Assembly: GCA_036555645.1 (NCBI GenBank)
Contig: DATBLA010000040.1
Coordinates: 3,839-67,838, forward strand
DNA from: Actinomycetota bacterium
Lineage (GTDB): Bacteria; Actinomycetota; UBA4738; HRBIN12
Direction of reading: 5' to 3'
DNA: 64,000 bases
Each line of letters starts with the position of its first letter. Positions within the stretch are counted from its first letter, which is position 1. This document shows positions 4,806 through 38,482 of this stretch, in pieces. The notes beneath the pieces are model-generated. The model saw nothing but the letters and a program-made list of their open reading frames with translations. It made no database searches and was not told the DNA's origin. The position numbers were made by a program, and so were the translations under genes.

Positions 4806-4827
4806 CGGCCGGCTGCGGACCCGTACG

Positions 4828-5292
4828 ATGAACGGCGTGCCATCGACGGGACCGGACGAGCGCGATCTCGAGATCATCGCCGCGCTCCAGGAGGACGCCA
4901 GGGCGACCTATACCGACATCGGGCGGCGGGTGGGCCTGTCACCGTCATCGGTCCACGAGCGCATCCGCCGGCTCGAACGAAACGGCACGATTCGGGGATA
5001 TCGGGCGGTCGTCGAGCCCGAGGCCGTCGGGTTGTTCGTCACGGCGCTCATCGCGGCATCCCCGCTGGATCCGACCCAACCCGACGACCTGCCCGATCGC
5101 GTGCACGACTTCCCGGAGGTCGTCGACTGTCTCAGCGTGGCCGGCGAGGCCAACTACATCCTCAAGGTGAGGACGCGGACGACCGCGGAGCTCGAGGACC
5201 TCATCCGCCGGCTCCGCGAGAAGGGTGAGGTGCACACGCGCACGACCGTCGTGCTCTCGATCCCGTTCGAGAACCGCCCGCTCGTGCCCTAG
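4828..5292 (+). CDS. lrp: Lrp/AsnC-family transcriptional regulator
   Basis: 154 aa. N-terminal HTH (LEIIAALQEDARATYTDIGRRVGLSPSSVHERIRRLE) plus C-terminal RAM/AsnC_trans domain. Divergent from the RT gene with ~20 bp between the starts. Confidence 0.85.
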   Translation: MNGVPSTGPDERDLEIIAALQEDARATYTDIGRRVGLSPSSVHERIRRLERNGTIRGYRAVVEPEAVGLFVTALIAASPLDPTQPDDLPDRVHDFPEVVDCLSVAGEANYILKVRTRTTAELEDLIRRLREKGEVHTRTTVVLSIPFENRPLVP

Positions 5293-22720: not shown

Positions 22721-22757
22721 CGGCGCGGCCGCGCCTGCCGAGGACTCGCGATCGCCC

Positions 22758-23714
22758 TCAGGAGGCAAGGATCGCCTCGAGCCTGGCGACGACGTCCGCG
22801 CGGAGCGCCTCGGGCTCCACCGCCTCGGCGTCCGGGCCGAAGGACAGCACCCAGCCGGCCAGCGTCTCGTCCGCGTGCCACGGCATCCGAACCTCCAGCC
22901 ATCCGTCCCCGCGCTGGCCGAGCACCTCGACGCCGGCGATGCCCTGGGTCGCCCACCACGAGACCTCCGGCGAGAACGCCACCGTTGCCGTCGTCCTGGG
23001 CTCGCCCGGTCCCCACGGCCCGCCCTGCACGTGGTCCGCCGCACGGAACCCGTCCGGGGGCGGGCTCCCGTCTCCGGCCGCCTGCACCTCGCCCTCCATG
23101 CGCGACAGCCGGAAGGAACGGATCTCGCCCCGGTCCTGGTCGAGGCCGACGAGATACCAGCGCCCCGCCCGCAGCGCGAGCCCGAACGCGTCCACGGATC
23201 GCTCCGAGCGCTCCCCCCGCGAGGTCCGGTAGCCGAACCGGACCCGGCGCTGCGCCGCGACGGCCTCGGCGGCATCGACAAGATTGGGGTCCCGGGGACC
23301 GCCGAGCCCCGATCCGGCCAGGCCGGCCAGGACGCCTCCATCGGCGCCGGCCAGCAGCTTTCGAACCGCGTCCTCGGCCGGAGGGTCGCCCGCCGAGCGG
23401 ACCGCGACGAGCAGCGCCGAGATCTCCTCCCCCGTGAACGCGATGTCCGGCAGGTAGTAGCGATCCTTGTCGATCGCGTAGCCCTGCTCGACGTCCCAGG
23501 CGTCGGTCGCCACGACCTCGATCGGGACGCCGATGTCGCGCAGGACGTCCTTGTCCCGCTCGAACATGCGCTTGGCCGATGCGACGTCCTGGTGCCCGTA
23601 CCCCTCCGAGAGCTTGTCGCGGATCTGCTCGAAGGTGAGCGGGGTCCGGGACTCGAGCAGCAGGGCGACGAGGTTGACCAGGCGCTCGAGCGGGTGCATC
23701 GCGCGCGGCATCAT
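22758..23714 (-). CDS. pafB: Proteasome accessory factor PafB (HTH + WYL)
   Basis: MMPRAMHPLERLVNLVALLLESRTPLTFEQIRDKL, WYL region GRWYLVGLDQDRGEIRSFRLSRM. 318 aa. Confidence 0.85.
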   Translation of the reverse strand: MMPRAMHPLERLVNLVALLLESRTPLTFEQIRDKLSEGYGHQDVASAKRMFERDKDVLRDIGVPIEVVATDAWDVEQGYAIDKDRYYLPDIAFTGEEISALLVAVRSAGDPPAEDAVRKLLAGADGGVLAGLAGSGLGGPRDPNLVDAAEAVAAQRRVRFGYRTSRGERSERSVDAFGLALRAGRWYLVGLDQDRGEIRSFRLSRMEGEVQAAGDGSPPPDGFRAADHVQGGPWGPGEPRTTATVAFSPEVSWWATQGIAGVEVLGQRGDGWLEVRMPWHADETLAGWVLSFGPDAEAVEPEALRADVVARLEAILAS

Positions 23715-23723
23715 ACTTCCGCC

Positions 23724-24821
23724 ATGTCGCCCGACCGGCCCGACGTGCGCCTGCGCTACGGGAGGATCCTGCGGGTCGGCGAGCGGCGACCCGGGGCGGT
23801 GGAGCTCGAGGTGGAGGTGGAGGGCGCGACGGCCCCGGCGCTCGCCTACCCCGACCTCGTCGGACCCGTCTCCGAAGGCGACACCGTCGTCCTCAACACG
23901 ACCGCCGTGGCCCTGGGCCTCGGGACGGGCGGGATGCACCTCGTCGTCGCCGTCGCCGGGGCCTGGACGGATCTCGCCCACACCGGACGGACGATGAAGG
24001 CCCGGTACACGCCGGCCCAGGTCGCGGTCGTCTCGGTCGAGGAGTCCGAACGCGACACGCTCGAGGGTTCGCCAGGACTGCGAGGGGTCCCCGTCGTCTG
24101 CGCCCCCCTGCATTCGATGGTCGCGCCGGTCGCCGCCGGGGCCCGGGCGGCGGGTGCCGAGCGGATCGTCTACGTGATGACCGACGGCGCCTGCCTGCCC
24201 GGAGCGTTCTCGCGCCTGGTCCCCCGCCTTCGGGCAGCCGGCCTGCTCGACGCCTGGCTGACGGCCGGGCAGGCGTTCGGCGGCGAGCTCGAGGCCGTCA
24301 CGATCTGGAGCGCGCTCGTGGCCGCGGTCGAGGTCGCACGGGCCGACGTCGTGGTCGTCGCCGACGGGCCCGGGAACCTGGGCACCGACACGACGTGGGG
24401 CGTGAGCGCGCTCGGATCCGGCACCGCGATCAACGCGGCCCACACGCTCGGTGGCCGGCCCGTTGCGGCGCTCCGGATCTCGTTCGCCGACCCTCGTCCG
24501 CGTCATGCCGGCGTCTCGCACCACTCCCTCACGATCCTCGAGCGCGTGTGTCTCGTGCCGGCCACCGTCGTCGTCCCGGCGCTCGAGGGCGCCGAGCGGG
24601 ACCGCGTGTGGGACGCCCTGCGCGCCCGGGCCCTCGAGGATCGCCACCAGCTCGTGGAGGCGGACGGCCGTCCCGCCATGGACGCGCTCGAGCGCGCCGG
24701 CGTCGAGGTCGACTCGATGGGCCGCACGCCGGCGGAGGACCCCGTCTTCTTCCTCGCCGCCGGAGCCGCGGGCGTGGTGGCGGGGCGCATGGCGGCGGCG
24801 TCGAGGACCTGGCGCGCGTAG
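23724..24821 (+). CDS. DUF3866-like hypothetical protein, encoded antisense to the paf operon direction
   Basis: 365 aa with strong GC3 bias (MSPDRPDVRLRYGRILRVGE...VVLNTTAVALGLGTGGMHLVV...). Fills the 1.1-kb gap between pafB and pafA, where the minus strand has no clean frame. Confidence 0.6.
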   Translation: MSPDRPDVRLRYGRILRVGERRPGAVELEVEVEGATAPALAYPDLVGPVSEGDTVVLNTTAVALGLGTGGMHLVVAVAGAWTDLAHTGRTMKARYTPAQVAVVSVEESERDTLEGSPGLRGVPVVCAPLHSMVAPVAAGARAAGAERIVYVMTDGACLPGAFSRLVPRLRAAGLLDAWLTAGQAFGGELEAVTIWSALVAAVEVARADVVVVADGPGNLGTDTTWGVSALGSGTAINAAHTLGGRPVAALRISFADPRPRHAGVSHHSLTILERVCLVPATVVVPALEGAERDRVWDALRARALEDRHQLVEADGRPAMDALERAGVEVDSMGRTPAEDPVFFLAAGAAGVVAGRMAAASRTWRA

Positions 24822-24834
24822 CGCTCGCGCGCGC

Positions 24835-26193
24835 TCACATGTGGGCGATGAGCTGCTCCACGCGCTCGTCGACGCTGCGGAACGGGTCCTTGCAGAGCAC
24901 GGTCCGCTGCGCCTGATCGTTGAGCTTGAGGTGGACCCAGTCCACGGTGTAGTCGCGCCGCTTCTGCTTCGCGTGGCGGATGAAGTCTCCGCGGAGCTTC
25001 GCCCTCGTCGTCTGCGGCGGCTCGCGCATCGCGCGCTGGATCTCCTTCTCGCCCACGGTCCGGTCCATCTTGCCGGCACGCTCGAGCACGTAGTACAGGC
25101 CGCGGGCCCGGTTCACGTCGTGGTAGGCGAGATCGAGCAACGCGAGGCGGGGGTGCGACAGCGGCAGCTGATGACGCTCCCGGAACCGCTCGATGAGCAT
25201 CTGCTTGGCCACCCAGTCGACCTTGCGGACGAGGCGGCCGGGCTCCTGGACGATGAGCGCGTCGAGCGCGTCACGCCACTCGCGGAGCAGCTGCTTCGAC
25301 TGGGGGTCGGCCCCCCGGCGCTCGAGGAACCGCTCCGTCCGCTCGTAGTACTCCTCCTGCACCTCGATCGCCGACAGCTCGCGGCCGTTGGCGAGGCGAA
25401 CCTTCTTCCGGCACGTCACGTCGTGGCTGATCTCGCGGATCGCCCGGATCGGGTTCTCGAGCGAGAGATCGCGCATGACCGTGTTCGCCTCGACCATCCG
25501 CAGGACGAGGTCGGTCACGCCGACCTTCATCCACGTCGTGAACTCGGACATGTTCGAGTCGCCCACGATCACGTGCAGGCGGCGGAAGCGCTCGGCGTCC
25601 GCGTGCGGCTCGTCGCGGGTGTTGATGATCGGCCTCGAGCGGGTGGTCGCCGAGGAGACGCCTTCCCAGATGTGCTCGGCGCGCTGCGCGATGCAGTAGA
25701 CCGCTCCGCGGGGACCGTGCAGGACCTTCCCGGCGCCGCACCAGATCTGCCGCGTCACGAAGAACGGGATGAGCATGTCCGCCATGCGGGCGAACTCGCC
25801 CTGGCGCGCGACGAGGTAGTTCTCGTGGCAGCCGTAGGAGTTGCCGGCGGAGTCGGTGTTGTTCTTGAACAGGTAGACCTGGCCGCTGATCCCCTCCTCG
25901 TGCAGCCGGACCTCGGCCGCGGCCAGGAGCGCCTCGAGGATGCGCTCGCCCGCCTTGTCGTGGGCGACGAGATCGGTGATGCCGTCGCACTCGGGCGTCG
26001 CGTACTCGGGATGCGAGCCCACGTCGAGGTAGAGCCGTGCCCCGTTCTCCAGGAAGACGTTGGACGAGCGCCCCCAGTGCACGACCCGGCGGAACAGGTA
26101 GCGAGCGACCTCGTCCGGAGACAGGCGGCGCTGACCGCGGAACGTGCAGGTGACCCCGTACTCGTTCTCGAGCCCGAAGATGCGTCGGTCCAC
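24835..26193 (-). CDS. pafA: Pup--protein ligase PafA
   Basis: [16 protein letters not shown]..., [19 protein letters not shown], carboxylate-amine ligase fold. 452 aa from the GTG start. The ORF-track start 26409 is an Arg/Gly-rich extension. Confidence 0.9.
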
Positions 26194-26237
26194 GACCCGA
26201 GTGTAGGCCCGCGACCCCGCAGGGGCGGGAGCGCGGG

Positions 26238-26924
26238 TCAGCCGGCCAGGATGCCGGCGACCTCCTCCTCGCTCACCCGGCGGAAGGTTCGCCGCCCGGC
26301 CTGCGTGCGGTCGAGCACGCCCGCCTCGATCGAGTCCGCCTCCACGGTGTGCCCCTCCGCGGTCGAGAGCGCCCCGACCGCCTCGCGCACGGCCGTGGTG
26401 AGGTCCCACCCCGCCGCGTACGCCGACGTGAGCGCGCCGGTGAGCTCGTCCGCGTGCCCGCCGATCGCGACGAACCCGTGCTCGTCGGTCACCGTCCCGT
26501 CGAAGAGCACGTGATAGATCTCGTCCCGCCCGCCGTCGACGGCGACCTCCCCCACGAGGATCTCCACCTCGTACGGCTTCATCTGCTGGGTGAAGATCGT
26601 CGACAGGGCCTGCGAGTACGCGTTCGCGAGGTCTCTCGCCCGAACGTCCTCGCGGCCGTACGAGTAGCCGCGAAGGTCGGCCAGCCGCACCCCGCTGATC
26701 CGCAGGTCCTCGAACTCGCTGTACTTGCCGACCCCCGCGAACGCGATGCGGTCGTAGATCTCGCTGATCTTGTGGAGCGTCGCGCTCGGGTTCTCCGCGA
26801 GGAACAGAAGGCCGTCCGCGTACTCGAGTCCGATGACCGACTTCCCGCGGGCGATCCCCTTGTGGGCGAACTCCGAGCGGTCCTTCATGAGCTGCTCGGG
26901 GGGCACGTACGGCATGAAGCTCAC
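26238..26924 (-). CDS. prcA: 20S proteasome alpha subunit PrcA
   Basis: (M)[32 protein letters not shown]... closely parallels M. tuberculosis PrcA. GTG start overlaps the prcB stop as GTGA. Confidence 0.9.
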
Positions 26925-27742
26925 GACGGACCCCCGGACGCTTCGGCCGCGTCGCGTGCGACGATGGCCTCGTAGGCGCCGCGAACGTCGCCCTCGGGCG
27001 CGTGCTCGGCTCCGCCGGAGGTCACGACGACCACCGTCGGGAAGATCCCGCGAGCGAGATCGACGCCTCCGGTCGCCACGTCCTCCTGCGAGGCGTCGAC
27101 GAGGGCCTCGACCGCCACGCGGAGCGCGTCGTCGCGGCCGAGGTCGGGGCGCCAGCGCTTCTTCAGCGAGCTCGTGGCGGCCCGGCCTCCCGACCCCGTG
27201 GCGTGGAAGTCGTCCTCCTCCCATCGCCCGCCCGTCGCGTCGTAGTAGAAGATCCGGCCCAGTCCCCGCCGCTCGTCGAAACCTCCGAACAGCGGCACGA
27301 CGACGAGGCCCTGGACGGCGAGCGGGAAGTTCGATCGGATCATCTGACCGAGCCGGTTCGCCTTGCCCTCCAGCGAGAGCCGGTCGCCGGTGATCTTCTC
27401 GTAGTGCTCGAGCTCGAGCTGGAAGAGCTTGACGATCTCGACGGCCTGCCCGGCGGCGCCGGCGATCGCGATCGCCGAGAACTCGTCGGCGGGGAACACC
27501 TTCTCCATCCGGTCGTCGGCGATCGCGTACCCCTCGGTCGCGCGACGGTCGCCGGCGAACACGACGCCGTCGGCGAACTTCACGCCGACGACCGTGGTCC
27601 CGTGCGGCGACAGCGCCTCCGCCGAAGCCGTGGGGACAGGCAGGGCCTCTGGCCGGGATCCGCGGATCAGATCGAAGAAGCTGGGGTTCGCGCCGATGGG
27701 GCCACCCGGCAGCCCGGGCGGCGGGGCCGGAACCTGCGTCAT
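26921..27742 (-). CDS. prcB: 20S proteasome beta subunit PrcB (propeptide plus catalytic Thr, TTVVGV)
   Basis: [23 protein letters not shown]. Confidence 0.9.
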
Positions 27743-27939
27743 TCCCCGCCCTTTTGCACGTACGACTTCACGAACTCCTCGGCGTTCTCCTCCAGCACGG
27801 AGTCGATCTCGTCGAGGATGTCGTCCATCTCCTCACGAAGCTTCTCGCTCTTCGAGGAGGACGTGACCTGGCCGCCGGCAGAGTCCGAACCACCACCGGA
27901 CCGCTTCTGGACCTTCTTCTGCTCCTGCTCCTGCGGCAC
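27739..27939 (-). CDS. pup: Prokaryotic ubiquitin-like protein Pup (C-terminal GGE)
   Basis: 66 aa, disordered N-terminus, C-terminal [22 protein letters not shown] overlap with prcB. Confidence 0.9.
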   Translation of the reverse strand: MPQEQEQKKVQKRSGGGSDSAGGQVTSSSKSEKLREEMDDILDEIDSVLEENAEEFVKSYVQKGGE

Positions 27940-27990: not shown

Positions 27991-29475
27991 CTAGGAGCGG
28001 AGCATCTCGACGAGCGCCGCCGCGTCGGCGGCCTGCTCGAGGAGGTCCTCGACGTGCGCCTTCGTTCCCCGCAACGGCTCGCGCATCGGCACCCGCTGCA
28101 GCGCCTCGGCGCCGGTGTCGAAGATCATCGAGTCCCACGAGGCGGCGGCGATCGCGTCCGGATACCGGTCGATGCACCGCCCCCGGAAGTACGCCCGCGT
28201 GTCCTCCGGCGGTTCCATGATCGCCCGCTCGATCTCGTCGTCGCCGACGAGCCGCTCGACCTTCCCGGTCGCCGCGAGCCGGTGATACAGGCCACGGTCG
28301 CGACGGACGTCGTGGTACTGGAGATCGATGAGCCGCAGCTTGGGATCGGACCAGTCGAGGCCGTCGCGCTCGCGGAAGCCCGCGAGGAGGCGATACTTCG
28401 CCACCCAGTCGAGCTCGCGCGCCAGCTGCATCGGGTCGTCCTCCAGGGCCGTCAGGACGGCCTCCCACCGCTCGACCACCTCGAGGCCCTCGGCGGAGGT
28501 GTCCTCCTGCTCCACGTACTTCTTCGCGCGCTCCAGGTACTCCCACTGGACCTGCACCGCGCTCAGCTTGCGGCCGTCCGCCAACCGGATGAGCGCGGCA
28601 CACGTCAGGTCCCTGGACACCTCGTGGAGGGCCGAGACCGGGGTGGCGAGCTGGAGGTCGGGCAGGTAGTCGTCCTCGATCATCTTCAGCACGATCGCCG
28701 TCGTTCCCACCTTGAGGAACGTCGCGACCTCGCACATCGTCGCGTCGCCCACGATGACGTGGAGCCGCCGGTACTTCTCCGGATCGGCGTGCGGCTCGTC
28801 GCGCGTGTTGATGATCGGGCGCTTCAGGGTCGTCTCGAGCCCCACCTCGGCCTCGAAGAAGTCGGCCCGCTGCGTGAGCTGGAACCGCTGCCTGCCCCGC
28901 TCGTCCCAGGGGGCCTCGGCACCGAGCTTGCCCGCCCCGCAGAAGATCTGCCGGCTCACGAAGAACGGCGTCAGGCCCGTCACGAGGTTCCCGAACGGGA
29001 CCGCGCGGTCCACGAGGTAGTTCTCGTGCGTCCCGTAGCTGTTGCCCTTGCCGTCGCTGTTGTTCTTGTAGACGGCGAGGCGCTGGCCGGTGGCCAGGGT
29101 GCGCTCCACCTCGTCGAGCGAGCGCTCGAGGACGCGCTCCCCCGCCTTGTCGTGGATCACGAGCTCGCGGGGCGACGCGCACTCGGGCGTGGAGTACTCG
29201 GGGTGGGCGTGATCGACGTAGTAGCGAGCGCCGTTCGGCAGGATGACGTTCGCCAGGCCCAGGTCCTCCTCCGACGGCTCGCGGAGCTGGACCGGCTCGA
29301 ACCCGCGAGCGTCGCGCAGCGGCGACTCCTGCTCGTAGTCCCAACGGATCCGGCGAAGCGCGCCCGCGTACGTGCTGATGAGCAACGAGGACGAGATGAC
29401 CGGGTTGAACTCGGGAGATCCGACCGCCGAGATGCCGTACTCGGTCTCGGTCCCGATGACCTTGGGGATGGCCAT
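27991..29475 (-). CDS. dop: Depupylase/deamidase Dop
   Basis: MAIPKVIGTETEYGISAV..., PafA/Dop family. 494 aa with the Dop-specific insertion. Confidence 0.9.
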   Translation of the reverse strand: MAIPKVIGTETEYGISAVGSPEFNPVISSSLLISTYAGALRRIRWDYEQESPLRDARGFEPVQLREPSEEDLGLANVILPNGARYYVDHAHPEYSTPECASPRELVIHDKAGERVLERSLDEVERTLATGQRLAVYKNNSDGKGNSYGTHENYLVDRAVPFGNLVTGLTPFFVSRQIFCGAGKLGAEAPWDERGRQRFQLTQRADFFEAEVGLETTLKRPIINTRDEPHADPEKYRRLHVIVGDATMCEVATFLKVGTTAIVLKMIEDDYLPDLQLATPVSALHEVSRDLTCAALIRLADGRKLSAVQVQWEYLERAKKYVEQEDTSAEGLEVVERWEAVLTALEDDPMQLARELDWVAKYRLLAGFRERDGLDWSDPKLRLIDLQYHDVRRDRGLYHRLAATGKVERLVGDDEIERAIMEPPEDTRAYFRGRCIDRYPDAIAAASWDSMIFDTGAEALQRVPMREPLRGTKAHVEDLLEQAADAAALVEMLRS

Positions 29476-29484
29476 CCGTGGACC

Positions 29485-31236
29485 TTACAGGTACTGCCCG
29501 GCGCTGACCCGCTCGACCTGCCGTCCCTCTCCTTCCGCGTCGCCGAGCAGGGTACGGACGTAGACGATGCGCTCGCCCTTCTTGCCCGAGATCCGCGCCC
29601 AGTCGTCGGGGTTCGTCGTGTTCGGCAGGTCCTCGTTCTCCTTGAACTCGTCGCGGATCGCGCGGGACAGGTCGTCCGACGTGATCCCCTTCTCTCCCGT
29701 CTGGAGGAACCGCTTGATCGCTTCCTTCTTCGCGCGGCGGACGATGTTCTCGATCATCGCCCCCGAGTTGAAGTCCTTGAAGTACAGGACCTCCTTGTCG
29801 CCGCTCGCGTACGTCACCTCGAGGAAGCGGTTCTCCTCCGCCGTCTCGTACATCCGATCCACGGTCTGCTGGATCATCCGGGCGATCGTCGCCTTCACGT
29901 CACCGTTCGAGCGGGCGAGGTCCGTCGGGTGGATCGGGACCCGGGCGTTCAGGTACTTGCTCATGATGTCCGCGGCCTGCGCGGCGCTGGGTCGCTCGAT
30001 CTTGATCTTCACGTCGAGGCGGCCGGGACGCAGGATCGCCGGATCGATCAGGTCCTCGCGATTCGAGGCGCCGATCACGATGACGTTCTTCAGCGTCTCG
30101 ACGCCGTCGAGCTCGGAGAGCAGCTGCGGCACGATCGTCGACTCGACGTCGCTCGAGATCCCCGTTCCACGGGTCCGGAAGATCGAGTCCATCTCGTCGA
30201 AGAACACGATGACCGGCAACCCCTCCTCGCTGCGCTCCTTCGCGCGCTGGAAGATCTGACGGATCTGTCGCTCGGTCTCGCCGACGTACTTGTTCAGCAG
30301 CTCGGGGCCCTTGATGTTCAGGAAGTAGGAGTGGGCGTCCTGGCGGCCGGTCCGCTCGCGAACCTTGTCGGCGAGCGAGCGGGCCACGGCCTTGGCGATG
30401 AGCGTCTTGCCGCACCCCGGGGGTCCGTAGAGCAGGACACCTTTCGGCGCCTCGAGCTGGTGCTCGGCGAACAGCTCCGCGTACAGGAACGGGAGCTCGA
30501 CGGCGTCGCGGATCGCCTCGATCTGCCCCTCGAGCCCGCCGATGTCCTCGTACGAGATGTCGGGGATCTCCTCGAGGACGAGCTCCTCGACCTCCTCCTT
30601 CGGCAGCCGCTCGAGCGCGACGTTGGAGCGCGTGTCGATGAGCAGCGGATCGCCCGCCCGGATCTGCTCGGAGAGCAGCCCGACCGACAGCGTGGCCACG
30701 ATCTCCTCGTCGCCGCGGCCGACCACGACGACCCGGTCCTCGCCGAGGCGGTCCTTGACCTTCATGACCTCGCCGGCCCGGTCGGGCGCGAGGACCTCCA
30801 CGACGTTCAGCGCCTCGTTGAGGATCACCTCGGCACCACGGCGGAGCCCGTCGGCGTCGAGGTCGGGCGAGACGTTCACGCGCATCTTCCGGCCCGCCGT
30901 GAACACGTCGGCCGACCCGTCGTCGTTCGTGCCGAGGTACACGCCGAACGACGCCGGCGGCTGGCTGAGCTTCTCGACCTCCTCGCGGAGCCCCTCGATC
31001 CGCTCCTTCTCGGACTCGAGCGCGCCGGCGAGCTTCTCGTTCTGCGAGATCGCCCGCGCGAGGTCCGACCGCGTTTCGAGCAGCTTCTCCTCCAGGAGCT
31101 TCACCTGGCGGGGGGCGTTCGTGAGCCGGCGTCGCAGGAGCGAGATCTCGTCCTCGAGGAACCGGACCTGCGTCTGGAGCTCGTGGATCTGCTTCTCGTA
31201 GCGCTCCTGCTGCTCGCGTGGGTCGGGCTCGGGCAC
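29485..31236 (-). CDS. mpa: Proteasome-associated AAA ATPase ARC/Mpa
   Basis: N-terminal coiled coil, OB domains, Walker A GPPGCGKT, Walker [12 protein letters not shown]-terminal GQYL proteasome-docking motif. Confidence 0.92.
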
Positions 31237-31350: not shown

Positions 31351-32139
31351 TTAGGACGGGTCGGCGACACGGCGCGCCACCGTCACGAACCCGGTGTGGG
31401 CGACCATCCGGTGATCCGGCCGGACGCTCGTCTCCGTCACGTGCCACGAGCGACGGAGGATCTCGAACGTCTCCAGGTGCTCGCATCCGGCGGCGCCGAG
31501 CGCGAGCACGAGCCGCTGCACCTGGATCGTCGTCGGGAGGTACGCGCAGACGATGCCCCCCGGAGGGAGCGCGTCGCCGAGGGCCGCGATCGCCTCCCAT
31601 GGCTCGGGCAGATCGAGGACGACGCGGTCGAAGGTCTCGCCCGTGCCCGCCACCTCGCGCACGTCGCCCACGCGCAGGTCGAGCCAGTCCGGCATCTTGC
31701 CGAAGAACGCCTCGATGTTCTGCGCGGCCGTGGTCTGGAACTCGGCGCGGAGGTCGTAGGAGACCACCCGACCGTCCGGTCCGGTCGCCCGACACAGCGC
31801 CAGCGTGAGCGAGCCCGACCCGGTCCCGGCCTCGAGCACCCGGGCGCCCGGGTGGATGTCGGCCTCCACGAGGATGGGGCCGACGTCCTTCGGGTACACG
31901 ACCTGCGCTCCCCGCGGCATCTTCAGGACGAAGTCCGCCATCCGCGGCCGGAACGCGCGAAAGCTCATCCCGGTCGCGGATCTCGCGACCGTGCCCTCGC
32001 GCTCGCCGATGAGGAGGTCGTGCGCCACGCCGCCGCCGTGCGAGTGCCACACCTCGCCCGACCGGAGCGTGACGAGGTACCGGCGCCCACGCTGGTCCAC
32101 GAGCAGGATGCGCTCGCCGGGCTCGAACGGGGCGCTCAC
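31351..32139 (-). CDS. trmI: tRNA (adenine58-N1)-methyltransferase TrmI
   Basis: ILLVDQRGRRYLVTLRSGE...VLEAGTGSGSLTLAL...DRVVLDLPEPWEA (Gcd14/TrmI SAM-MTase). GTG start overlaps the upstream stop as GTGA. Confidence 0.85.
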   Translation of the reverse strand: MSAPFEPGERILLVDQRGRRYLVTLRSGEVWHSHGGGVAHDLLIGEREGTVARSATGMSFRAFRPRMADFVLKMPRGAQVVYPKDVGPILVEADIHPGARVLEAGTGSGSLTLALCRATGPDGRVVSYDLRAEFQTTAAQNIEAFFGKMPDWLDLRVGDVREVAGTGETFDRVVLDLPEPWEAIAALGDALPPGGIVCAYLPTTIQVQRLVLALGAAGCEHLETFEILRRSWHVTETSVRPDHRMVAHTGFVTVARRVADPS

Positions 32140-33347
32140 GTCGCGGCCGAGCCGTAGACCTCGGCCGGCATGACCTCCTCCGACAGGCTCGCGGCCAGCT
32201 CGCGCTCGGTGAGCGCCTGGCCCTCCTCGCCGGTCCCGGCGTCCAGGCGCTCGCCCAGGATCTGGGCGCGGGCCCGGCAGAACGCGCAGAACCGCCCGGT
32301 CGTCGGCTGCGCGCACCGCTCGCAGGCGTGGAGCTCGGCATCGTCCTGGGTGGCGAACAGCGGAGCCGCACGGTCGAGGTAGCTGAGGAAGAACTGCGCC
32401 TTCGTGCCGGGCGAGCCCGCCTCGAGCTGGTTCATCGCGTCCTTGTACCGAAGCTGCGTGTTCCCCCCCACGAGCGGACACTCCTCGACGACGTAGTCGA
32501 TGCCGCGAAGGAACGCGTACGCGGCGGTCTCGAGCTCGGACAGCCGGTACAGCGGCTTCACCTTGCGCGCGAGCCCCTCCTCGGCGGGGAGCACCGGGAA
32601 CTGCCGCGCGATGTAGTCGGTCTGCCAGCGCAGGGTGTTCCCGAGCAGGGTCGCCGCCTCGTCGTCGAGGTTGTGGCCCGTCGCGACGACGTCGTAGCCG
32701 CGCTCCCGGGCCGTTCGGTTGAAGACATAGCGCTTCGACAGGCCGCACACGGCACAGGTCGACCTCGATCCCTTTGCGCCGGCCGTCGGCACGTCGAACC
32801 CGTAGTCGTCCCGAAGGTCGACCTCGATGAGGCGCGTGTCACGGCCGGCGGCGAAGGTCCGCACGGTCCGAGCCGACCCCTCCGAGTACTCCCCGATCCC
32901 CAGGCCCAGGTACAGCCCGTCCGCCCGATATCCCAGGTCGAGCAGCACGTCCCACAGCGCGAGCGAGTCCTTGCCGCCCGAGACCGCGACGAGGATCCGA
33001 TCCTGCGCGCCGAACATGTCGAACGCCTCGATCGCGCGCTTGACCTGCTCGCGCACGTGACGCACGAAGCAGTCCCGGCAGAAGGCCGCGTTGTGGCGGC
33101 GCACCTCGACGACCGCCGGCGCCTTGCAGCGCCGGCACTTCATCCGGTTCGCGGCACCGCCGCTGATCACCGGCCGGATCTCGATCTCGTCCGCTTCGCC
33201 GACGCGATCCTCGCGCGTGAGGAGCTCGCGGTCGCGGATCACGAGCACCGTGTCCGGGTTGATGCCGAGCTCGCCGAGGACGGCGTGGACCTTCCGACCG
33301 CCCGCGACCTCGACGTCCCGGTCGGGGTTCCGGAGCCTGACCTTCAC
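32136..33347 (-). CDS. In-frame fusion: N-terminal ThiS/MoaD/TtuB-like ubiquitin-fold sulfur carrier domain (aa 1-66, ends ...RPVISGG) joined to a TtuA/Ncs6-family PP-loop tRNA thiolase
   Basis: Residues 1-66 (MKVRLRNPDRDVEVAGGRKVHAVLGELGINPDTVLVIRDRELLTREDRVGEADEIEIRPVISGG) align with ThiS and end in Gly-Gly. Continues AANRM into ZnF1 CRRCK...CRDC, PP-loop SGGKDS, Fe-S/active-site CAVCGLSKRY, GHNLDDEA, C-terminal ZnF CERC...CAFC. Confidence 0.75.
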   Translation of the reverse strand: MKVRLRNPDRDVEVAGGRKVHAVLGELGINPDTVLVIRDRELLTREDRVGEADEIEIRPVISGGAANRMKCRRCKAPAVVEVRRHNAAFCRDCFVRHVREQVKRAIEAFDMFGAQDRILVAVSGGKDSLALWDVLLDLGYRADGLYLGLGIGEYSEGSARTVRTFAAGRDTRLIEVDLRDDYGFDVPTAGAKGSRSTCAVCGLSKRYVFNRTARERGYDVVATGHNLDDEAATLLGNTLRWQTDYIARQFPVLPAEEGLARKVKPLYRLSELETAAYAFLRGIDYVVEECPLVGGNTQLRYKDAMNQLEAGSPGTKAQFFLSYLDRAAPLFATQDDAELHACERCAQPTTGRFCAFCRARAQILGERLDAGTGEEGQALTERELAASLSEEVMPAEVYGSAAT

Positions 33348-33389
33348 GCGGTCAGGCTATCGCAGCGCCGACCCCCGTCCCCGGTCCCC

Positions 33390-34466
33390 TCAGGGCGTCG
33401 AGACGGGGTTCACGCCCAGCGTGACGGTGAGCGTCTCGGGCGATCCGTCGGGGTGGACGACGTCGACCTCGACCGTGTCGCCGGGCCGCTTCGACCGGAT
33501 CAGCTCGCCGAGGCCGTCGGCGGTCGTCACGTCCTGCCCGTCGAAGCCCACGACCACGTCGCCGGGCTGGATGCCCGCGTCGTCGGCCGGCCCGCCGGGG
33601 ACGACGCTCACGATGGCGGCCCCCTCGCTCACCGGCGGGTCGAGCTCGAACTGGATCTGCGGGTCCGAGGCGTCGCCCGAGCTGATCCCCATGAAGGCCA
33701 CGGGCGCCGACGGGTTCTCGGCGGCCTGGAAGATGTCGGACTTGGCGGAATCGATCTGGATCGCGAAGCCGATGTTCTCCGCTTCGTTCGCGCCGGCGGT
33801 GTTGATCCCGACCACGCGGCCGGACAGGTCGACGAGCGGCCCGCCGGAGTTCCCGGGGTTGATCGCGGCGTCGGTCTGGATGACCTCGGTGTACACGCGC
33901 TGGCCTCCCTCGCACTCGGCGCAGTTGGCGTCGGGCACGGTGATGTTCCTCGTGAGCGAGGACACGACGCCCGTGGTGACCGAGGGCCCGCCGGCGAGCC
34001 CGAGCGCGTACCCGATCGCCACGACCGGCTGCCCCAGCCGGAGGTCGGCGGAGTCCCCGAGCGGGACCGTCGGAAGGTCGGTGGCCTCGACGTCGAGCAC
34101 CGCGAGGTCGTCCTGGATATCGCCCCCGATGACCCTCGCGTCGTACTCGACGGGATCCGAGTCGGAGGTCACGACGGTGACCCTCGAGGCGCCCTCCACG
34201 ACGTGGAAGTTCGTCACGATGATGCCGTCCGAGCGGACGATGAACCCGGTCCCCTCGCCCTGTCCCTGTCCGGACTCGGCGACGACGTTGACCACGGCCG
34301 GCAGCACCTGATCGACGACGTCCACCACGCCGTTGCGCCCCCCCACCGGCGCCTCGGCGCCCGAGGGGAACACGGCCTGGGGCTCGGCGCTGTTGTTCGT
34401 CCGTTGCATCGTGCACGCCGAGAGCCCGAGTGCGGCAACCAACAGGATGAGGATCGTTCGCTTCAT
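33390..34466 (-). CDS. HtrA/DegP-family trypsin-like serine protease with PDZ domain, lipoprotein signal
   Basis: Signal/lipobox MKRTILILLVAALGLSAC. Catalytic His VTNFHVV, Asp DLAVLDV, Ser GNSGGPLVD. C-terminal PDZ. Confidence 0.85.
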   Translation of the reverse strand: MKRTILILLVAALGLSACTMQRTNNSAEPQAVFPSGAEAPVGGRNGVVDVVDQVLPAVVNVVAESGQGQGEGTGFIVRSDGIIVTNFHVVEGASRVTVVTSDSDPVEYDARVIGGDIQDDLAVLDVEATDLPTVPLGDSADLRLGQPVVAIGYALGLAGGPSVTTGVVSSLTRNITVPDANCAECEGGQRVYTEVIQTDAAINPGNSGGPLVDLSGRVVGINTAGANEAENIGFAIQIDSAKSDIFQAAENPSAPVAFMGISSGDASDPQIQFELDPPVSEGAAIVSVVPGGPADDAGIQPGDVVVGFDGQDVTTADGLGELIRSKRPGDTVEVDVVHPDGSPETLTVTLGVNPVSTP

Positions 34467-34521
34467 CGTCTCACTCCAGTGTGTCGATTCAGGGGCCATT
34501 CGACACCCGGAGGCCGAACGT

Positions 34522-35469
34522 TCACCCGACCGAGGTCGATCCGGGAGCGGGCCTCGGCAGGAGGCCGGCCGCCTCGACGACCCGGGGAATCGCCTCCTCG
34601 TGGTTGATCGTCATGAGGTGGACGCCCCGGATCCCCGGGATCCCGCGCACCTGCTCCACGAGCTCGACGGCGATGCGGATGCCCTCCTCACGCTGTCGCG
34701 CCGCCTCCACGCCGCCCATCCGCTCGATCACCCAGTCGGGGACGTCGACCCCGGGCACCTGGTCCCGGAGGTAGCGAGCGCCGCGCTCGGAGCTCGGGAC
34801 GAAGATCCCGGCGAGCACCCACACGCGATCGAGCAATCCGAGCTCGCCCGACCGGGCCATGAACAATCGCAACTTCTCCACGTTGAAGCAGATCTGCGTC
34901 TGGATGAACTCGGCTCCCGCCTCGATCTTCATCCCCAGGCGCATCGGGCGGAACTCCAGCGGCGGCGCGAACGGGTTCTCGACCGCCCCGATGAGGTACC
35001 GCGGCGCGTCGTCGAGCTGTCGGCCGGACAGGTAGGTGCCCTGATCCCGCATGATCTTCGCGATCCGAAGCAGGTGGACGGCGTCGATGTCGTAGATCGG
35101 CTTGGCCTCCGGGTGGTCGCCGACCGACACGTCGTCTCCGGTCATGCACACGACGTTGCGTACCCCCAGGGCGGCGGCGCCGAGGAGGTCGGCCTGGAGC
35201 GCGAGCCGGTTCCGATCCCGGCACGCGAGCTGCATGATGGGCTCGAGGCCGTCCTCGAGCAGGAGCCGGGCGGCCGCGAGCGGCGCGATGTGGGTGTGAG
35301 CAGCGCTGTTGTCCGTGCAGTTGACCGCGTCGACGCTCCCGCGCAGCGTCTCCGCCAGTCCGGCGATCGAGCCGGGATCGGCCGAGTCGCTCGTCTGGAG
35401 CTCCGCGGTGACGACGAAGGCGCCGTCGAGCAAGCGCCGGTGGAGCTCGCTCCAGGGCGCCGGACTCAC
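34522..35469 (-). CDS. metF: 5,10-methylenetetrahydrofolate reductase (MetF family)
   Basis: MTHFR TIM-barrel motifs (VDAVNCTDNSAAHTHIAPLAAA, VRNVVCMTGDD, TQICFNVEKL). 315 aa. Confidence 0.8.
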   Translation of the reverse strand: MSPAPWSELHRRLLDGAFVVTAELQTSDSADPGSIAGLAETLRGSVDAVNCTDNSAAHTHIAPLAAARLLLEDGLEPIMQLACRDRNRLALQADLLGAAALGVRNVVCMTGDDVSVGDHPEAKPIYDIDAVHLLRIAKIMRDQGTYLSGRQLDDAPRYLIGAVENPFAPPLEFRPMRLGMKIEAGAEFIQTQICFNVEKLRLFMARSGELGLLDRVWVLAGIFVPSSERGARYLRDQVPGVDVPDWVIERMGGVEAARQREEGIRIAVELVEQVRGIPGIRGVHLMTINHEEAIPRVVEAAGLLPRPAPGSTSVG

Positions 35470-35494
35470 GCCCGCGCCGAGTCTCGCGGATCGC

Positions 35495-35923
35495 TCACGC
35501 GCGCGGGGAGGGCTCGGCGCCTGCCCAGCCGCCTGGCACCCACCGGTCGCGGCCCGTCACCAGGTTCTCCCACGATCCGGTGCCCTGGAGCCGCCAGTCC
35601 GTCGGGGGCTCGACGTGCTCCATGTGATCGCGCCACAGCGGGAGCCGGCGCGATCCCTCCCACGCCTGCACCCAGACGCAGCGCATCTCCGGCACCACCT
35701 CGCAGCTCCCGTCCTGGAGCGTGCCACCGCACGGACCGTTGCGGAGGTTCTTCGGGCAGCGCATCGGGCAGGTCAGCCCCGTCGAGTGCAGGATGCACTG
35801 GCCGCACATCCGGCAGTCCCAGATCGCCTCCTTCGTCCGGCGCTCGAGGACGACGAGCGCCTTGCGCACACCCCTCGGCGCCGGCGCCGTCGTCGGCGGT
35901 CTCCGGTCGAGCGTGCGAGCCAT
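35495..35923 (-). CDS. MetV-like Cys-rich protein (MTHFR C-terminal-domain family)
   Basis: CRMCGQCILHSTGLTCPMRCPKNLRNGPCGG...C matches the zinc-ribbon-like MTHFR_C/MetV pattern. Immediately upstream of metF, as in the acetogen metV-metF arrangement. Confidence 0.6.
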   Translation of the reverse strand: MARTLDRRPPTTAPAPRGVRKALVVLERRTKEAIWDCRMCGQCILHSTGLTCPMRCPKNLRNGPCGGTLQDGSCEVVPEMRCVWVQAWEGSRRLPLWRDHMEHVEPPTDWRLQGTGSWENLVTGRDRWVPGGWAGAEPSPRA

Positions 35924-35947
35924 GGCTCCGGCGGCCGTGCGGCGGCC

Positions 35948-37129
35948 TCAGCCCTGCCGCAGGTCCTGCGCCGGAACCTCCTTCCGGGGATCGAGGAACG
36001 GGATCGTCGCCGTCGTGACCGACAACGGGCCGTTCTCCGACTCCACGTCCAGCGGCGTGCCGGGGGCGGCGAGCTCGATCGGGACCCACGCGTACCCGAT
36101 GTTCCGCTCGAGACGGGGCGACCAGACGGCGTCGGTCACCTTGCCGATCTGCCGGCCACCCTGCACCACGGGCCAGAACCACGTGAGCTCGGCCCTGAGC
36201 TCGTCTCCCGGCCACTCGATGCCGACGAGCTTGCGGTCGACGCCGCGAGCCCGCAGCGCCTCGAGCGCCGCCTTGCCGATGTAGTCCTGCGGCTGGTCCT
36301 CGACGAGGTGCTCGAGGCCGGTGATGTGCAATGCCGTGTCCTCGTGGGTCATGTCGGAGTTGTAGTTCATGATCCCGGCCTCGATGCGGCGCGCCTCGAT
36401 CGGCGCGACCGGCCGGATCGCGTGCTCCTCGCCGGCCTCGAAGATCGCGTTCCACAGATCGTCGCCACGGGTGGGGTCGAGGAGGTTCACCTCGAACCCC
36501 TGGACGGCGGTCCATCCGGTCCGGCTGATGAGGACCGGGATGTCCTTGATGTCGAACCAGTCGCACCAGTAGTACTTCAGGTCGTAGATCGCCGCGCCGA
36601 CGAGCTTCTCGAGCGTTGCGGCCGCCTTCGCGCCCTGCACCTGCATCGGGTACGCGTCCGGGTAGGAGACCTCGACGTCCATCCCCGCCTGCGTGGCGAC
36701 GCCGAGCGCGTACAGGCCGGCGTCCGAGTCCGCCAGCTGCATCCACCAGCGGTTCTCGTCGACGTGGAGCAGGACCGGGTCGTTGAGGATCCCACCGTCG
36801 GGCGCCGTCACGATCATGTACTTGCCCTGCTTGACCTGGCACGTCGTCAGGTCACGACACGTGATCATGTCGACGAGCCGGTCGGCGTCGGCCCCGGAGA
36901 TCTCCACCGTGCGCTCGACCGCCACGTCCCACACCGTGACGTCGTTCAGCAGGGCCCAGTACTCCGTGATCGGGTCGTCGTAATAGGCAGGCAGGAACAT
37001 GTGGTTGTAGACGTCGTACGCCGTGCAGCCCGAGCGGCGCGTCGCGTCGAAGAACGGCGACCGCCGGTACCAGGGACCGAAATAGATCGTCGCGCTCTGC
37101 TCGAGCATCTCCTGTCGCTCGTTCACCAT
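35948..37129 (-). CDS. GcvT-family aminomethyltransferase paralog 1 (THF-dependent demethylase-like)
   Basis: GcvT fold blocks: VWDVAVERTVEISGADADRLVDMITCRDL, GKYMIVTAPDGGILNDPVLL, ISRTGWTAVQGFEV, C-terminal barrel. 393 aa. Confidence 0.75.
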   Translation of the reverse strand: MVNERQEMLEQSATIYFGPWYRRSPFFDATRRSGCTAYDVYNHMFLPAYYDDPITEYWALLNDVTVWDVAVERTVEISGADADRLVDMITCRDLTTCQVKQGKYMIVTAPDGGILNDPVLLHVDENRWWMQLADSDAGLYALGVATQAGMDVEVSYPDAYPMQVQGAKAAATLEKLVGAAIYDLKYYWCDWFDIKDIPVLISRTGWTAVQGFEVNLLDPTRGDDLWNAIFEAGEEHAIRPVAPIEARRIEAGIMNYNSDMTHEDTALHITGLEHLVEDQPQDYIGKAALEALRARGVDRKLVGIEWPGDELRAELTWFWPVVQGGRQIGKVTDAVWSPRLERNIGYAWVPIELAAPGTPLDVESENGPLSVTTATIPFLDPRKEVPAQDLRQG

Positions 37130-37216
37130 GTCGTGACGACACCCCCCCGGGCCGGCGGTCCGGCCCGCAGGATTGAATCATCGTTCAACGTCGGGAGCGG
37201 CGACAACTCGCGACGC

Positions 37217-38368
37217 TCAGGCGACCGGGATCTCCTTGTTGGGATCGACGAAGGGCATCTCGACCACGGTGGCGGTTCGGGATCCCCACTCCGTCTCGAC
37301 GTCCACGGTCTGGCCCGGCTCGGAGCGATCGCTCGGCAGCCACGCGAACCCGATGTTGCGCGCCAGGCGCGGCGAGTAGATCGCCGACGTCACCGACCCG
37401 ATCCGCGAGCCGTCCTGGACGACCGGCCACTTCGTCGCGTTCAGCTCCGGGAACGGGTCGCCGTCGAGCTCGACCCCGTTGATCCTGCGGGAGACGCCCC
37501 GGCCCCGGATCTCGCGCAGCGCCCCGAGCGAGATGCTCGCCTCGTCCGGCAGCGACCAGTCGATGAGACGCTCGAGACCCATCTCGAGCGGGTTGTTCTC
37601 ATAGGTCATGTCGGCGCCCCAGTTGAAGATCGCGCCCTCGATCCGGCGGATGTCGCTCGGCCCCGTCGGCTTGATGTCGAACTCGCGGCCGGCCTCCATG
37701 ATGGCCTCGTAGACCTCGGTGCCCTTCGTCGTGTCGGTGAGGTAGACCTCGTACCCGATCTCCGACGTCCATCCGGTGCGCGTGACCACGACGGGCGCTC
37801 CGGCGATCGTCGTCTCGGTCCAGTGGTAGTAGCGCAGGTCCAGGATCGAATCGCCGAGCAGCTTGACCATGAGCGGCTTCGACTTCGGGCCCTGCACCTG
37901 GAGCGGCGCGACGTCGGCCTCCCGGATCGTCACGTCGAGGTCGGGGTAGGCGTTGCGGAGGCCCCGGGCGAACAGGAGCGCGTCCGAGGAGGCGAGCGCG
38001 AACCAGAACGTGTTCTCGTCCATCCGCGTGAGGACCGGGTCGTTGAGGATCCCACCGTCGCGGTCGCAGATGAGGACGTACTTCGCCTGCCCGACCGCGC
38101 AGGCCGAGAGATCGCGCGGGGTCATGAGCTGCGCGAATCGCAGGCCGTCCGGACCGCCGATCTCCAGGCACCGCTCGACCGAGACGTCCCACAGGGTGAC
38201 GCCGTTCAGGAGCGCGTCGAACTCGGCCTCGAACGTGTCGAACCGGATCGGGAAGTACATGTGGTTGTAGACGGTGAAGCCCTTCGGCCCATACTTCTGT
38301 GTGGCCTCGAAGTACGGCGTGCGGCGATTGCGCGCGCCGCGCTGCACCAGGCTCATGTCGAACGACAT
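37217..38368 (-). CDS. GcvT-family aminomethyltransferase paralog 2. Start taken at MSFDMSLVQ; the ORF-track start is 38440
   Basis: LWDVSVERCLEIGGPDGLRFAQLMTPRDL, AKYVLICDRDGGILNDPVL, VTRTGWTSEIGYEVYL. Clearly paralogous to 35948..37129. Confidence 0.75.
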   Translation of the reverse strand: MSFDMSLVQRGARNRRTPYFEATQKYGPKGFTVYNHMYFPIRFDTFEAEFDALLNGVTLWDVSVERCLEIGGPDGLRFAQLMTPRDLSACAVGQAKYVLICDRDGGILNDPVLTRMDENTFWFALASSDALLFARGLRNAYPDLDVTIREADVAPLQVQGPKSKPLMVKLLGDSILDLRYYHWTETTIAGAPVVVTRTGWTSEIGYEVYLTDTTKGTEVYEAIMEAGREFDIKPTGPSDIRRIEGAIFNWGADMTYENNPLEMGLERLIDWSLPDEASISLGALREIRGRGVSRRINGVELDGDPFPELNATKWPVVQDGSRIGSVTSAIYSPRLARNIGFAWLPSDRSEPGQTVDVETEWGSRTATVVEMPFVDPNKEIPVA

Positions 38369-38482
38369 CGGAGGTCCTCCTCGCCGGTCCAGGGATTCGG
38401 CATCGATCCGGACGGATCGCCGTATGGTGTCGCCGGCCACGACGCCGAGACAAGGAGCCCTCCTGACCGATGGTCAGGAGCG

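Follow-up and report, generated by a model that had tools for sequence, protein, structure and literature searches.

The stretch of DNA analyzed here, which is referred to as the window, comprises 64,000 nucleotides (nt) of contig DATBLA010000040.1 (assembly GCA_036555645.1) from an Actinomycetota bacterium of the GTDB lineage UBA4738; HRBIN12. Its minus strand carries a single open reading frame (ORF) of 403 amino acids (aa) at 32136..33347, with a GTG start and no internal stop, in which a TtuB-type sulfur carrier of the ThiS family precedes a TtuA-type tRNA 2-thiouridine synthetase. An annotation made from the letters alone (hereafter the sequence-only reading) had proposed an in-frame fusion of these two parts, and the uninterrupted ORF bears this out. 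The TtuB-TtuA fusion is a real and conserved feature and not an artefact, and the identities of its domains, as well as the T-loop modification module that they make up with the adjoining gene trmI, are much more secure than the step by which the carrier would be cut from its enzyme.

The TtuB-type beta-grasp sulfur-carrier domain corresponds to residues 1-64 (33156..33347, minus strand), which end in RPVISGG. Comparison of these residues with a beta-grasp profile placed Pfam ThiS on residues 9-64 above its cut-off of 22.5 bits, the score being 26.0 bits in the context of the full protein and 30.3 bits for the isolated domain. The best PDB match of residues 1-64 is Thermus thermophilus TtuB (5ZTB_E, E = 2.3e-13), followed by SAMP2-type carriers of Pyrococcus/Thermococcus; the alignment reaches the last residue of 5ZTB_E (...ISGG), where G63-G64 pair with its terminal diglycine (GG), and the domain is about 50% identical to this working TtuB. 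An AlphaFold2 (AF2) model built on an alignment of 47 fused homologs, which is only moderately confident (mean predicted local distance difference test score, pLDDT, of 69), shows the beta-beta-alpha-beta-beta-beta order in residues 1-60 with block-mean pLDDT of 73-91, and drops below 50 at residues 61-66, which represent the GG tail and the start of the linker. Foldseek comparison of this model with the TtuB chains of 5ZTB/5GHA gave TM-scores of 0.89-0.90 (target-normalised) and a root-mean-square deviation of 1.7 A. Judged by its sequence, the domain is an ortholog of T. thermophilus TtuB, and the sequence-only reading was right in taking it for a genuine sulfur carrier with a GG tail.

The diglycine Gly63-Gly64 (33156..33161, minus strand) is the predicted site of both cleavage and thiocarboxylation, according to its alignment with TtuB and its invariance. 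It is present without exception in the 47 aligned fused homologs, in 120/120 closest homologs and in about 118 members of a second fused clade, and the whole RPVISGG tail is unchanged in more than 230 fused sequences. The linker A65-A66-N67-R68 (AANR; 33144..33155, minus strand) between the carrier domain and TtuA is predicted to be disordered, and its counterparts among fused homologs consist of 1-12 aa, mostly of variable sequence with small residues, after which comes the first zinc-finger Cys. The sequence-only reading had let the carrier end in GG at residue 66, of which the GG stands, while the end lies at G63-G64 and residues 65-68 belong to the linker. The carrier has no free C-terminal carboxylate in the primary product, and because Gly64 is peptide-bonded to Ala65, with the next stop after residue 403, a free Gly64 carboxylate would arise only after proteolytic processing.

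Residues 69-403 together with the stop codon (32136..33143, minus strand) constitute the TtuA-type tRNA 2-thiouridine synthetase module. Residues 69-359 align gaplessly and end to end with residues 1-291 of T. thermophilus TtuA (5GHA_A, E = 3.4e-87, 296 bits), M69 pairing with Met1 of the latter; Pyrococcus horikoshii TtuA comes next (E = 2e-67, 231 bits), and the U34 enzyme NcsA is well behind (E = 1e-20, 77 bits). The AF2 model also matched the TtuA chain 5ZTB_A in Foldseek (E = 7e-28). All motifs that the sequence-only reading had named are present, and the remainder of the protein is a complete [4Fe-4S]/PP-loop tRNA 2-thiolase. On the minus strand, these motifs include an N-terminal zinc finger, C71-x2-C74...C90-x2-C93 (33069..33137; Pfam TtuA_LIM_N at residues 70-95, 40.9 bits, cut-off 27), and the ATP pyrophosphatase motif or PP-loop, S123-G-G-K-D-S128 (32964..32981), which is aligned with SGGKDS 55-60 of T. 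thermophilus TtuA and lies within a match to the PP-loop family ATP_bind_3 (residues 118-289, 32.9 bits). Two of the three [4Fe-4S] ligands and the catalytic Lys are found in C198-A-V-C201-G-L-S-K205 (32733..32756), equivalent to C130, C133 and K137 of T. thermophilus, and the third ligand, C290 (32478..32480), is equivalent to C222 in its EECP motif. A G224-HNLDD motif is also present, as well as a C-terminal zinc finger, C342-x2-C345...C354-x2-C357 (32277..32324), aligned with that of T. thermophilus TtuA. The PP-loop, the three Fe-S cysteines, K205 and all eight zinc-finger cysteines are invariant in the 47 aligned homologs. According to previous studies, S55 and D59 of T. thermophilus TtuA are required for adenylation and K137 is essential for TtuB desulfurization, while the C-terminal (thio)carboxylate of TtuB directly binds the unique Fe of the TtuA cluster, at which site the terminal Gly of TtuB is attacked at its carbonyl carbon by a Lys137-activated hydroxide (PMC7138817).

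The gene trmI (31351..32139, minus strand), encoding a tRNA (1-methyladenosine 58, m1A58) methyltransferase of 262 aa, was identified by Pfam GCD14 (110 bits) and TrmI-like_N (61.5 bits), and its product matches M. tuberculosis Rv2118c (PDB 1I9G, E = 4.5e-69) and T. thermophilus TrmI (2PWY, 5C0O; E about 1e-44). The stop TGA of the fusion gene overlaps the start GTG of trmI in a GTGA junction (32136..32139, minus strand), which can be read directly in the sequence as first described, and a 4-nt (A/G)TGA overlap of ttuA and trmI is kept in 39/55 related loci and across three classes. In Thermus, efficient 2-thiolation of position 54 requires m1A58 (PMC7912444), which documents the link between m1A58 and 2-thiouridine 54 (s2U54) that the sequence-only reading had drawn. 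Alternatively, the enzyme may act at another position, such as s2U34 like NcsA/Ncs6 or s2C32 like TtcA, in which case the trmI adjacency would be incidental. Specificity is not readable from sequence, and the equivalog cut-off of the NCBIfam TtuA model is missed; against this, the characterised U54 enzymes match it with 296 and 231 bits and NcsA with as little as 77 bits, its best NCBIfam family is the TtuA model NF049949 (264 bits, compared with 111 for NcsA and 78 for TtcA), and its gene has kept the 4-nt coupling to that of the T-loop enzyme TrmI across three classes, so that we regard a different target position as quite improbable.

The search of databases for this architecture showed that the 120 best homologs, which are cluster representatives from JGI, ENA, NCBI and Logan sources, are all fused, with lengths of 378-424 aa, identities of 72-100%, and RPVISGG followed by a linker. 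The identical 403-aa protein was found on contigs from two independent JGI metagenome samples. Querying with a distant fused match revealed the second fused clade, which includes Euzebyales metagenome-assembled genomes (MAGs) and the cultured Egibacter rhizosphaerae of class Nitriliruptoria, whose complete isolate genome contains the fusion; the linker in this clade is almost always AGPA. A scan of one genome per GTDB species gave 56 loci, 51 of which were classified along with the window, resulting in 27/52 fused loci (26 species-representative genomes and the window) and 25/52 split loci. In the 150 best representatives at 50% identity, the match to almost every TtuA homolog begins at about query residue 69, and only about five have the N-terminal domain. 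Public annotations of the fused proteins read "ATP-binding protein", "tRNA-5-methyluridine54 2-sulfurtransferase", "MoaD/ThiS family protein" or "TilS/MesJ/sulfur carrier protein ThiS", so that the fusion architecture is already visible in databases; a full-text search of the literature found no description of a TtuB-TtuA fusion.

A sequencing or assembly frameshift that merged two genes has to be considered here, given that split and fused versions differ by 1-2 nt at the junction and that the assemblies of some relatives have contigs with frameshifted genes. Such an artefact was ruled out by the in-frame linkers of many lengths in 120/120 closest homologs from all four sources, by the identical protein in two samples, and by the complete Egibacter genome. 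The internal Met has also been lost in many members, showing long-term evolution as one ORF, and the chance that the fusion is spurious is negligible.

The loss of this Met bears on translation as well. At the position of TtuA Met1, the second clade has Ala in 76/96 regular-expression-matched sequences and Met in only 3/96, the residue being replaced by Ala, Pro, Leu, Arg or Gly in 93/96, and some members of the first clade have Thr, Ile or Ser instead. Internal initiation was therefore rejected as a general mechanism for making separate TtuA, because many fused homologs have another residue in place of Met69 and no stop codon yields a TtuB ending in GG; for the same two reasons, there is no translational route to separate products.

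In close relatives and in Acidimicrobiia, ttuB and ttuA are separate genes joined by a GTGA/ATGA overlap, ttuB ending 0-24 codons past GG and overlapping the ttuA start. For instance, split locus L027 reads ...GGA CGG TGA (G-R-stop), with the embedded GTG starting TtuA as V-N-R-M-K-C, and the junction in the window reads ...GGT GCC GCG AAC CGG ATG AAG TGC. As split relatives read V-N-R-M-K-C, the "NR" of the linker is what remains of the ancestral beginning of TtuA. Between GG and the first Cys codon, fused loci have 12, 15, 18, 21 or 24 nt, all of which are multiples of 3, and most split loci have 11, 20, 23 or 26 nt. This spacing is the signature of a 1-2-nt indel taking the stop codon out of frame, and the fusion arose from an overlapping ttuB/ttuA gene pair. 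In a neighbour-joining tree built on the TtuA parts, all Acidimicrobiia are split, and the window falls into a large fused clade with one nested split subclade (L027, L029 and L030), alongside which stand a separate subclade of split loci and a fused lineage in basal position (L023); at least 2-3 changes between the fused and split states are needed.

The split TtuB proteins are themselves informative, since only 5/25 of them end exactly at GG, while 20/25 carry 1-24 residues past it. These tails (L025-L056) include GGR, AT, MR and AA, and reach 24 residues in a Rokubacteria MAG. Given that 20/25 split TtuBs are tailed, trimming back to GG must already occur without fusion. The TtuA part of the fusion is, in this respect, just a longer "tail" after GG, and a GG-specific processing activity should exist in these bacteria.

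In fused lineages, purifying selection acts as strongly on the carrier domain as on TtuA, in keeping with a carrier that still functions as such. The median ratio of nonsynonymous to synonymous substitution rates (dN/dS), from ungapped Nei-Gojobori estimates that are approximate, is 0.18 over 62 carrier codons and 0.19 over the first 150 TtuA codons, and the carrier of split lineages has values of 0.26-0.37. TtuB contacts the unique Fe through its terminal (thio)carboxylate, a contact that is not open to Gly64 as long as it is held in a peptide bond; nor can Gly64 be adenylated by an E1 in this state.

We therefore favor, as rather probable, an interpretation in which the TtuB-TtuA precursor is cut after Gly64, freeing the carrier for s2U54 synthesis that is coupled to m1A58. 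The cut would be made by a peptidase encoded elsewhere, the likeliest candidate being a JAMM/MPN+ enzyme of the kind that cleaves MoaD-MoaE, and would yield a TtuB of about 7 kDa with a free Gly-Gly carboxylate and TtuA in a 1:1 ratio. A shared E1-like enzyme of the TtuC/MoeZ type, together with a cysteine desulfurase and a rhodanese, would subsequently adenylate and thiocarboxylate TtuB, and the TtuB-COSH tail would enter TtuA and bind the unique Fe of the cluster that C198, C201 and C290 coordinate. TtuA would adenylate U54, K205 would promote sulfur release, and s2U54 or its 5-methyl derivative (m5s2U54) would form, while TrmI made from the same message would supply m1A58 and thus favor thiolation. 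The cleavage, the peptidase, the E1 and the modified tRNA position are the parts of this mechanism that we infer.

Several observations weigh against this interpretation. Pfam scans of about 50 window ORFs found no gene for a JAMM/MPN+ protein, an E1-like (ThiF/MoeB) enzyme, a rhodanese or a cysteine desulfurase, nor, in the same scans, a gene for an m5U54 methyltransferase. A JAMM motif, searched by regular expression, was found neither in the window nor in flanks of up to 10 kb at the 56 related loci, the only matches being chance ones in Dop, and Pfam scans of the genes upstream of ttuB in other lineages gave no JAMM protein either. As the Thermus E1 is encoded elsewhere and shared, these negative results were not expected to settle the matter. 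With four residues here and a nearly fixed AGPA in Nitriliruptoria, the linker is also very short, which could impede a protease or reflect a fixed arrangement of the two domains. The score of 264 bits with NF049949, a model named for the Pyrococcus type, does not reach the equivalog cut-off of 450, and position 54 is proposed as the target from homology and the trmI linkage. Moreover, because T. thermophilus TtuA accepts free sulfide in vitro with no TtuB (PMC11323500; PMC6225789), the carrier is not chemically indispensable.

Some of these observations would suit a fusion that is never cleaved, the TtuB domain being a permanent structural or regulatory part, such as a gate of the active-site channel, with sulfur coming from sulfide or another donor. 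Such an arrangement is chemically possible, and some TtuA-bearing organisms are without TtuB (PMC7138817); no peptidase or E1 gene lies nearby in the scanned window ORFs and related loci, and the Nitriliruptoria linker is short and nearly fixed. However, the GG and the RPVISGG tail are invariant in the fused sequences, while the linker next to them varies freely, the domain keeps its identity of about 50% to a working carrier, and its dN/dS equals that of the enzyme. Fused and split states also interconvert within one clade, suggesting equivalent products, and the carboxylate of the last Gly is the very chemical group that binds the cluster (PMC7138817). We consequently think a permanently uncut protein unlikely, although clearly worth keeping in mind.

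A third possibility is self-processing, in which the TtuA site, in cis or in a dimer partner, would hydrolyze the Gly64-Ala65 bond of a precursor tail threaded into it, through an Fe-bound hydroxide activated by Lys205 and with no need for a peptidase. It draws on the Lys137-activated hydroxide of Thermus, which already attacks the last-Gly carbonyl carbon of TtuB (PMC7138817), and on the neighborhoods examined, in which no dedicated peptidase was found. If it were true, an Fe-S tRNA sulfurtransferase would double as the "deubiquitinase" of its own ubiquitin-like carrier. A weaker alternative to self-processing is an uncut fusion that would act in cis through carrier chemistry without a free carboxylate. 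However, self-processing is without precedent, amide hydrolysis is much harder than thiocarboxylate hydrolysis, fused and split TtuA are not distinguishable at the active site by sequence, and the same reaction would have to be invoked for short-tailed split TtuBs, all of which makes it very improbable.

Compared with the Thermus thermophilus TtuA/TtuB system (5GHA, 5ZTB, 5B4E), both halves of the window protein are orthologous in sequence and in predicted fold, sharing the PP-loop, the three-Cys [4Fe-4S] site, the counterpart of K137, the two zinc fingers, the GG tail and the link to TrmI/m1A58. Unlike the Thermus system, which works with TtuC, TtuD and IscS/SufS, carrier and enzyme are here made as one polypeptide, with no free carrier C-terminus before processing. 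The fusion gene is, moreover, translationally coupled to trmI and adjoins Pup-proteasome genes, and its hosts are mostly uncultured Actinomycetota with soil-survey MAG labels rather than thermophiles.

The closest parallel for processing is MoaX of M. tuberculosis, a comparison aptly made by the sequence-only reading, which is active only after a cut between Gly82 and Ser83 by a protease that has not been identified (PMC4326299). In both cases, an actinobacterial carrier lies N-terminal to the enzyme that uses its thiocarboxylate, and the GG at the junction is followed by a small residue; MoaX differs in belonging to the molybdopterin pathway with another partner, and in that its cleavage was demonstrated, whereas ours is inferred. 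The MoaD-MoaE fusion of Deinococcus radiodurans is cleaved by DRJAMM, and the archaeal JAMMs HvJAMM1/PfJAMM1 cleave linear SAMP fusions (PMC8832034). In these cases, a JAMM/MPN+ enzyme cuts a linear fusion such that a beta-grasp carrier ending in Gly is set free, as proposed here, although the carriers there are different ones and the JAMM enzyme is only a candidate in our case. The principle of a carrier that is fused to its enzyme and cut after GG is thus already established; the fusion described here combines the TtuA/TtuB sulfur relay with a carrier-enzyme fusion of the MoaX type, and extends known biology without overturning any of it.

Eukaryotic ubiquitin precursors, namely ubiquitin-ribosomal protein fusions and polyubiquitin, also release an N-terminal ubiquitin-fold protein by a cut after GG, although the partner there is not an enzyme that is served by the ubiquitin-like protein. 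Urm1, which acts with Ncs6, is the counterpart of TtuB for tRNA thiolation and is not made as a fusion. Among prokaryotes, Iyer, Burroughs and Aravind (2006) described ThiS-ThiG, ThiS-ThiF and ThiS-sulfite reductase fusions, which share with the present one the theme of a ThiS/MoaD-type domain fused to its functional partner, and listed no fusion to TtuA or a PP-loop thiolase. The classic surveys (Makarova and Koonin; Iyer et al.) also list MoaD-MoaE fusions and not TtuB-TtuA, and Makarova and Koonin (2010) reported only gene-neighborhood links between ThiS genes and PP-loop ATPases, in archaea.

The Pup-proteasome genes announced by the sequence-only reading do adjoin the locus. Directly downstream of trmI lies mpa/arc (29485..31236, minus strand), whose translation shows the AAA+ motifs of the proteasome ATPase and whose assignment agrees with synteny; mpa orthologs at two related loci (L059 and L060) carry Prot_ATP_ID_OB and AAA domains. 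It is followed by dop (27991..29475, minus strand), identified from its translation and synteny and with orthologs assigned to Pup_ligase, and by pup (27739..27939, minus strand), which encodes 66 aa with the C-terminus ...QKGGE. Next come prcB (26921..27742) and pafA (within 24835..26409), and Pfam scans found the Proteasome and Pup_ligase families. The order ttuB/ttuA-trmI-mpa-dop is common to the clade of the window, Acidimicrobiia and Nitriliruptoria, and the expectation that such a module would be out of place in a Pup-encoding actinobacterium did not hold; these actinobacterial lineages regularly have the module at this position, and it is not peculiar to one genome.

The suggestion that the host may be a thermophile was not supported. 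Relatives are mostly MAGs labelled MFD or SMAG, which, as read from the isolate names, belong to Microflora Danica (Danish) and soil-MAG surveys of temperate soil, together with one hot-spring bin, HR12. The window proteins (n = 23) are rich in Glu, Arg, Val and Leu, with an IVYWREL index of 0.430, which corresponds to 68 C by a published linear formula, and a charged-minus-polar value of 10.7. For four shared proteins, the index is 0.453 in the window, 0.451-0.461 in the MFD-labelled MAGs and 0.469 in the hot-spring bin HR12. Thermophily as deduced from IVYWREL was rejected, because the window lies within the range of the MFD-labelled MAGs and below HR12, its composition being the same as that of its relatives. 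The index reflects the clade and not this organism, and seems to be biased for a high-GC clade. Egibacter rhizosphaerae, for its part, is presumably a mesophilic halophile.

Thiolation of T-loop position 54 by TtuA/TtuB has been treated in the literature as an adaptation of thermophiles (PMC7912444), and the presence of the machinery in three actinobacterial lineages, mostly in soil-labelled MAGs, suggests that s2U54 is wider spread than thought. The 4-nt lock to trmI suggests in turn that s2U54 has depended on m1A58 for long enough for this dependence to become fixed in operon structure. The fused form can be regarded as a natural bacterial ubiquitin-like precursor, whose carrier would, in the favored interpretation, need release after Gly-Gly to work. 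Thermus TtuB also conjugates to proteins (PMC11323500), and such conjugation, together with a cultivable fusion host in Egibacter rhizosphaerae, would offer a tractable system for the processing of bacterial ubiquitin-like precursors and possibly a route to the identification of the MoaX-type protease.

Immediately upstream of the fusion gene, an HtrA-like serine protease gene with Trypsin_2 and PDZ domains (33390..34499, minus strand) was considered as the source of the processing enzyme and rejected, because an N-terminal lipoprotein-type signal sequence (...LLVAALGLSAC) suggests that its product does not work in the cytoplasm. The HtrA-like matches in Acidimicrobiia, which are partial and 31-39% identical, are all located downstream of trmI, with none upstream of ttuB. 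The HtrA-like protease is probably extracytoplasmic and unrelated to processing of the fusion.

The start region of the fusion gene is conserved in its own right. A TAGCCT hexamer (33354..33359, minus strand) lies 6 nt upstream of the GTG start, and is invariant in 28/28 loci of the clade, where it precedes the ttuB start codon by 6-9 nt; a Shine-Dalgarno sequence is not apparent upstream of the GTG. TAGCCT fits the actinobacterial TANNNT -10 element of leaderless mRNA. It overlaps the 5' arm of an inverted repeat, AGCCUGACC/GGUCAGGCU (33334..33358, minus strand), which holds the start codon in its loop and for which RNAfold gave about -18 kcal/mol with z of about -3. Apparent compensatory changes connect the upstream arm with codons 2-4, and a swap test showed greater stability for native than for exchanged arm pairs, with the native mean reached in only 10/2000 permutations, which lends modest support; RNAalifold on a MAFFT alignment gave no compensatory pairs in the start-codon hairpin. 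This element may function as a promoter, as an operator or as an RNA hairpin.

Further observations concern the neighboring genes. The Pup encoded here ends in GGE and not GGQ, such that deamidation by Dop before ligation would be unneeded, yet dop adjoins pup. At 22512-25079, two long overlapping ORFs lie on opposite strands and have Pfam matches in different parts: WYL and WCX (PafB/PafC-like) match the 3' part of the minus-strand ORF at about 22758-23280, and DUF3866 matches the 3' part of the plus-strand ORF at about 23838-24774. The DUF3866 gene thus appears to be placed between pafA and the pafBC-like gene in the opposite orientation. Directly upstream, at 34522-38440 on the minus strand, there is a one-carbon cluster, which contains a gene similar to that of methylenetetrahydrofolate reductase (MTHFR), two paralogous GcvT-type aminomethyltransferase genes and a small gene with the MTHFR C-terminal domain (DUF5981). 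This cluster is syntenic with ttuBA throughout the clade of the window, and not in Acidimicrobiia or Nitriliruptoria.

Finally, a 288-aa ORF at 4011-4877 (minus strand) has a reverse-transcriptase domain (Pfam RVT_1, 35.7 bits, cut-off 29.6) and is flanked by genes for an amidohydrolase and an AsnC/Lrp regulator. It could represent a retron, a group II intron, a defence-type reverse transcriptase, or a fragment of one of these.

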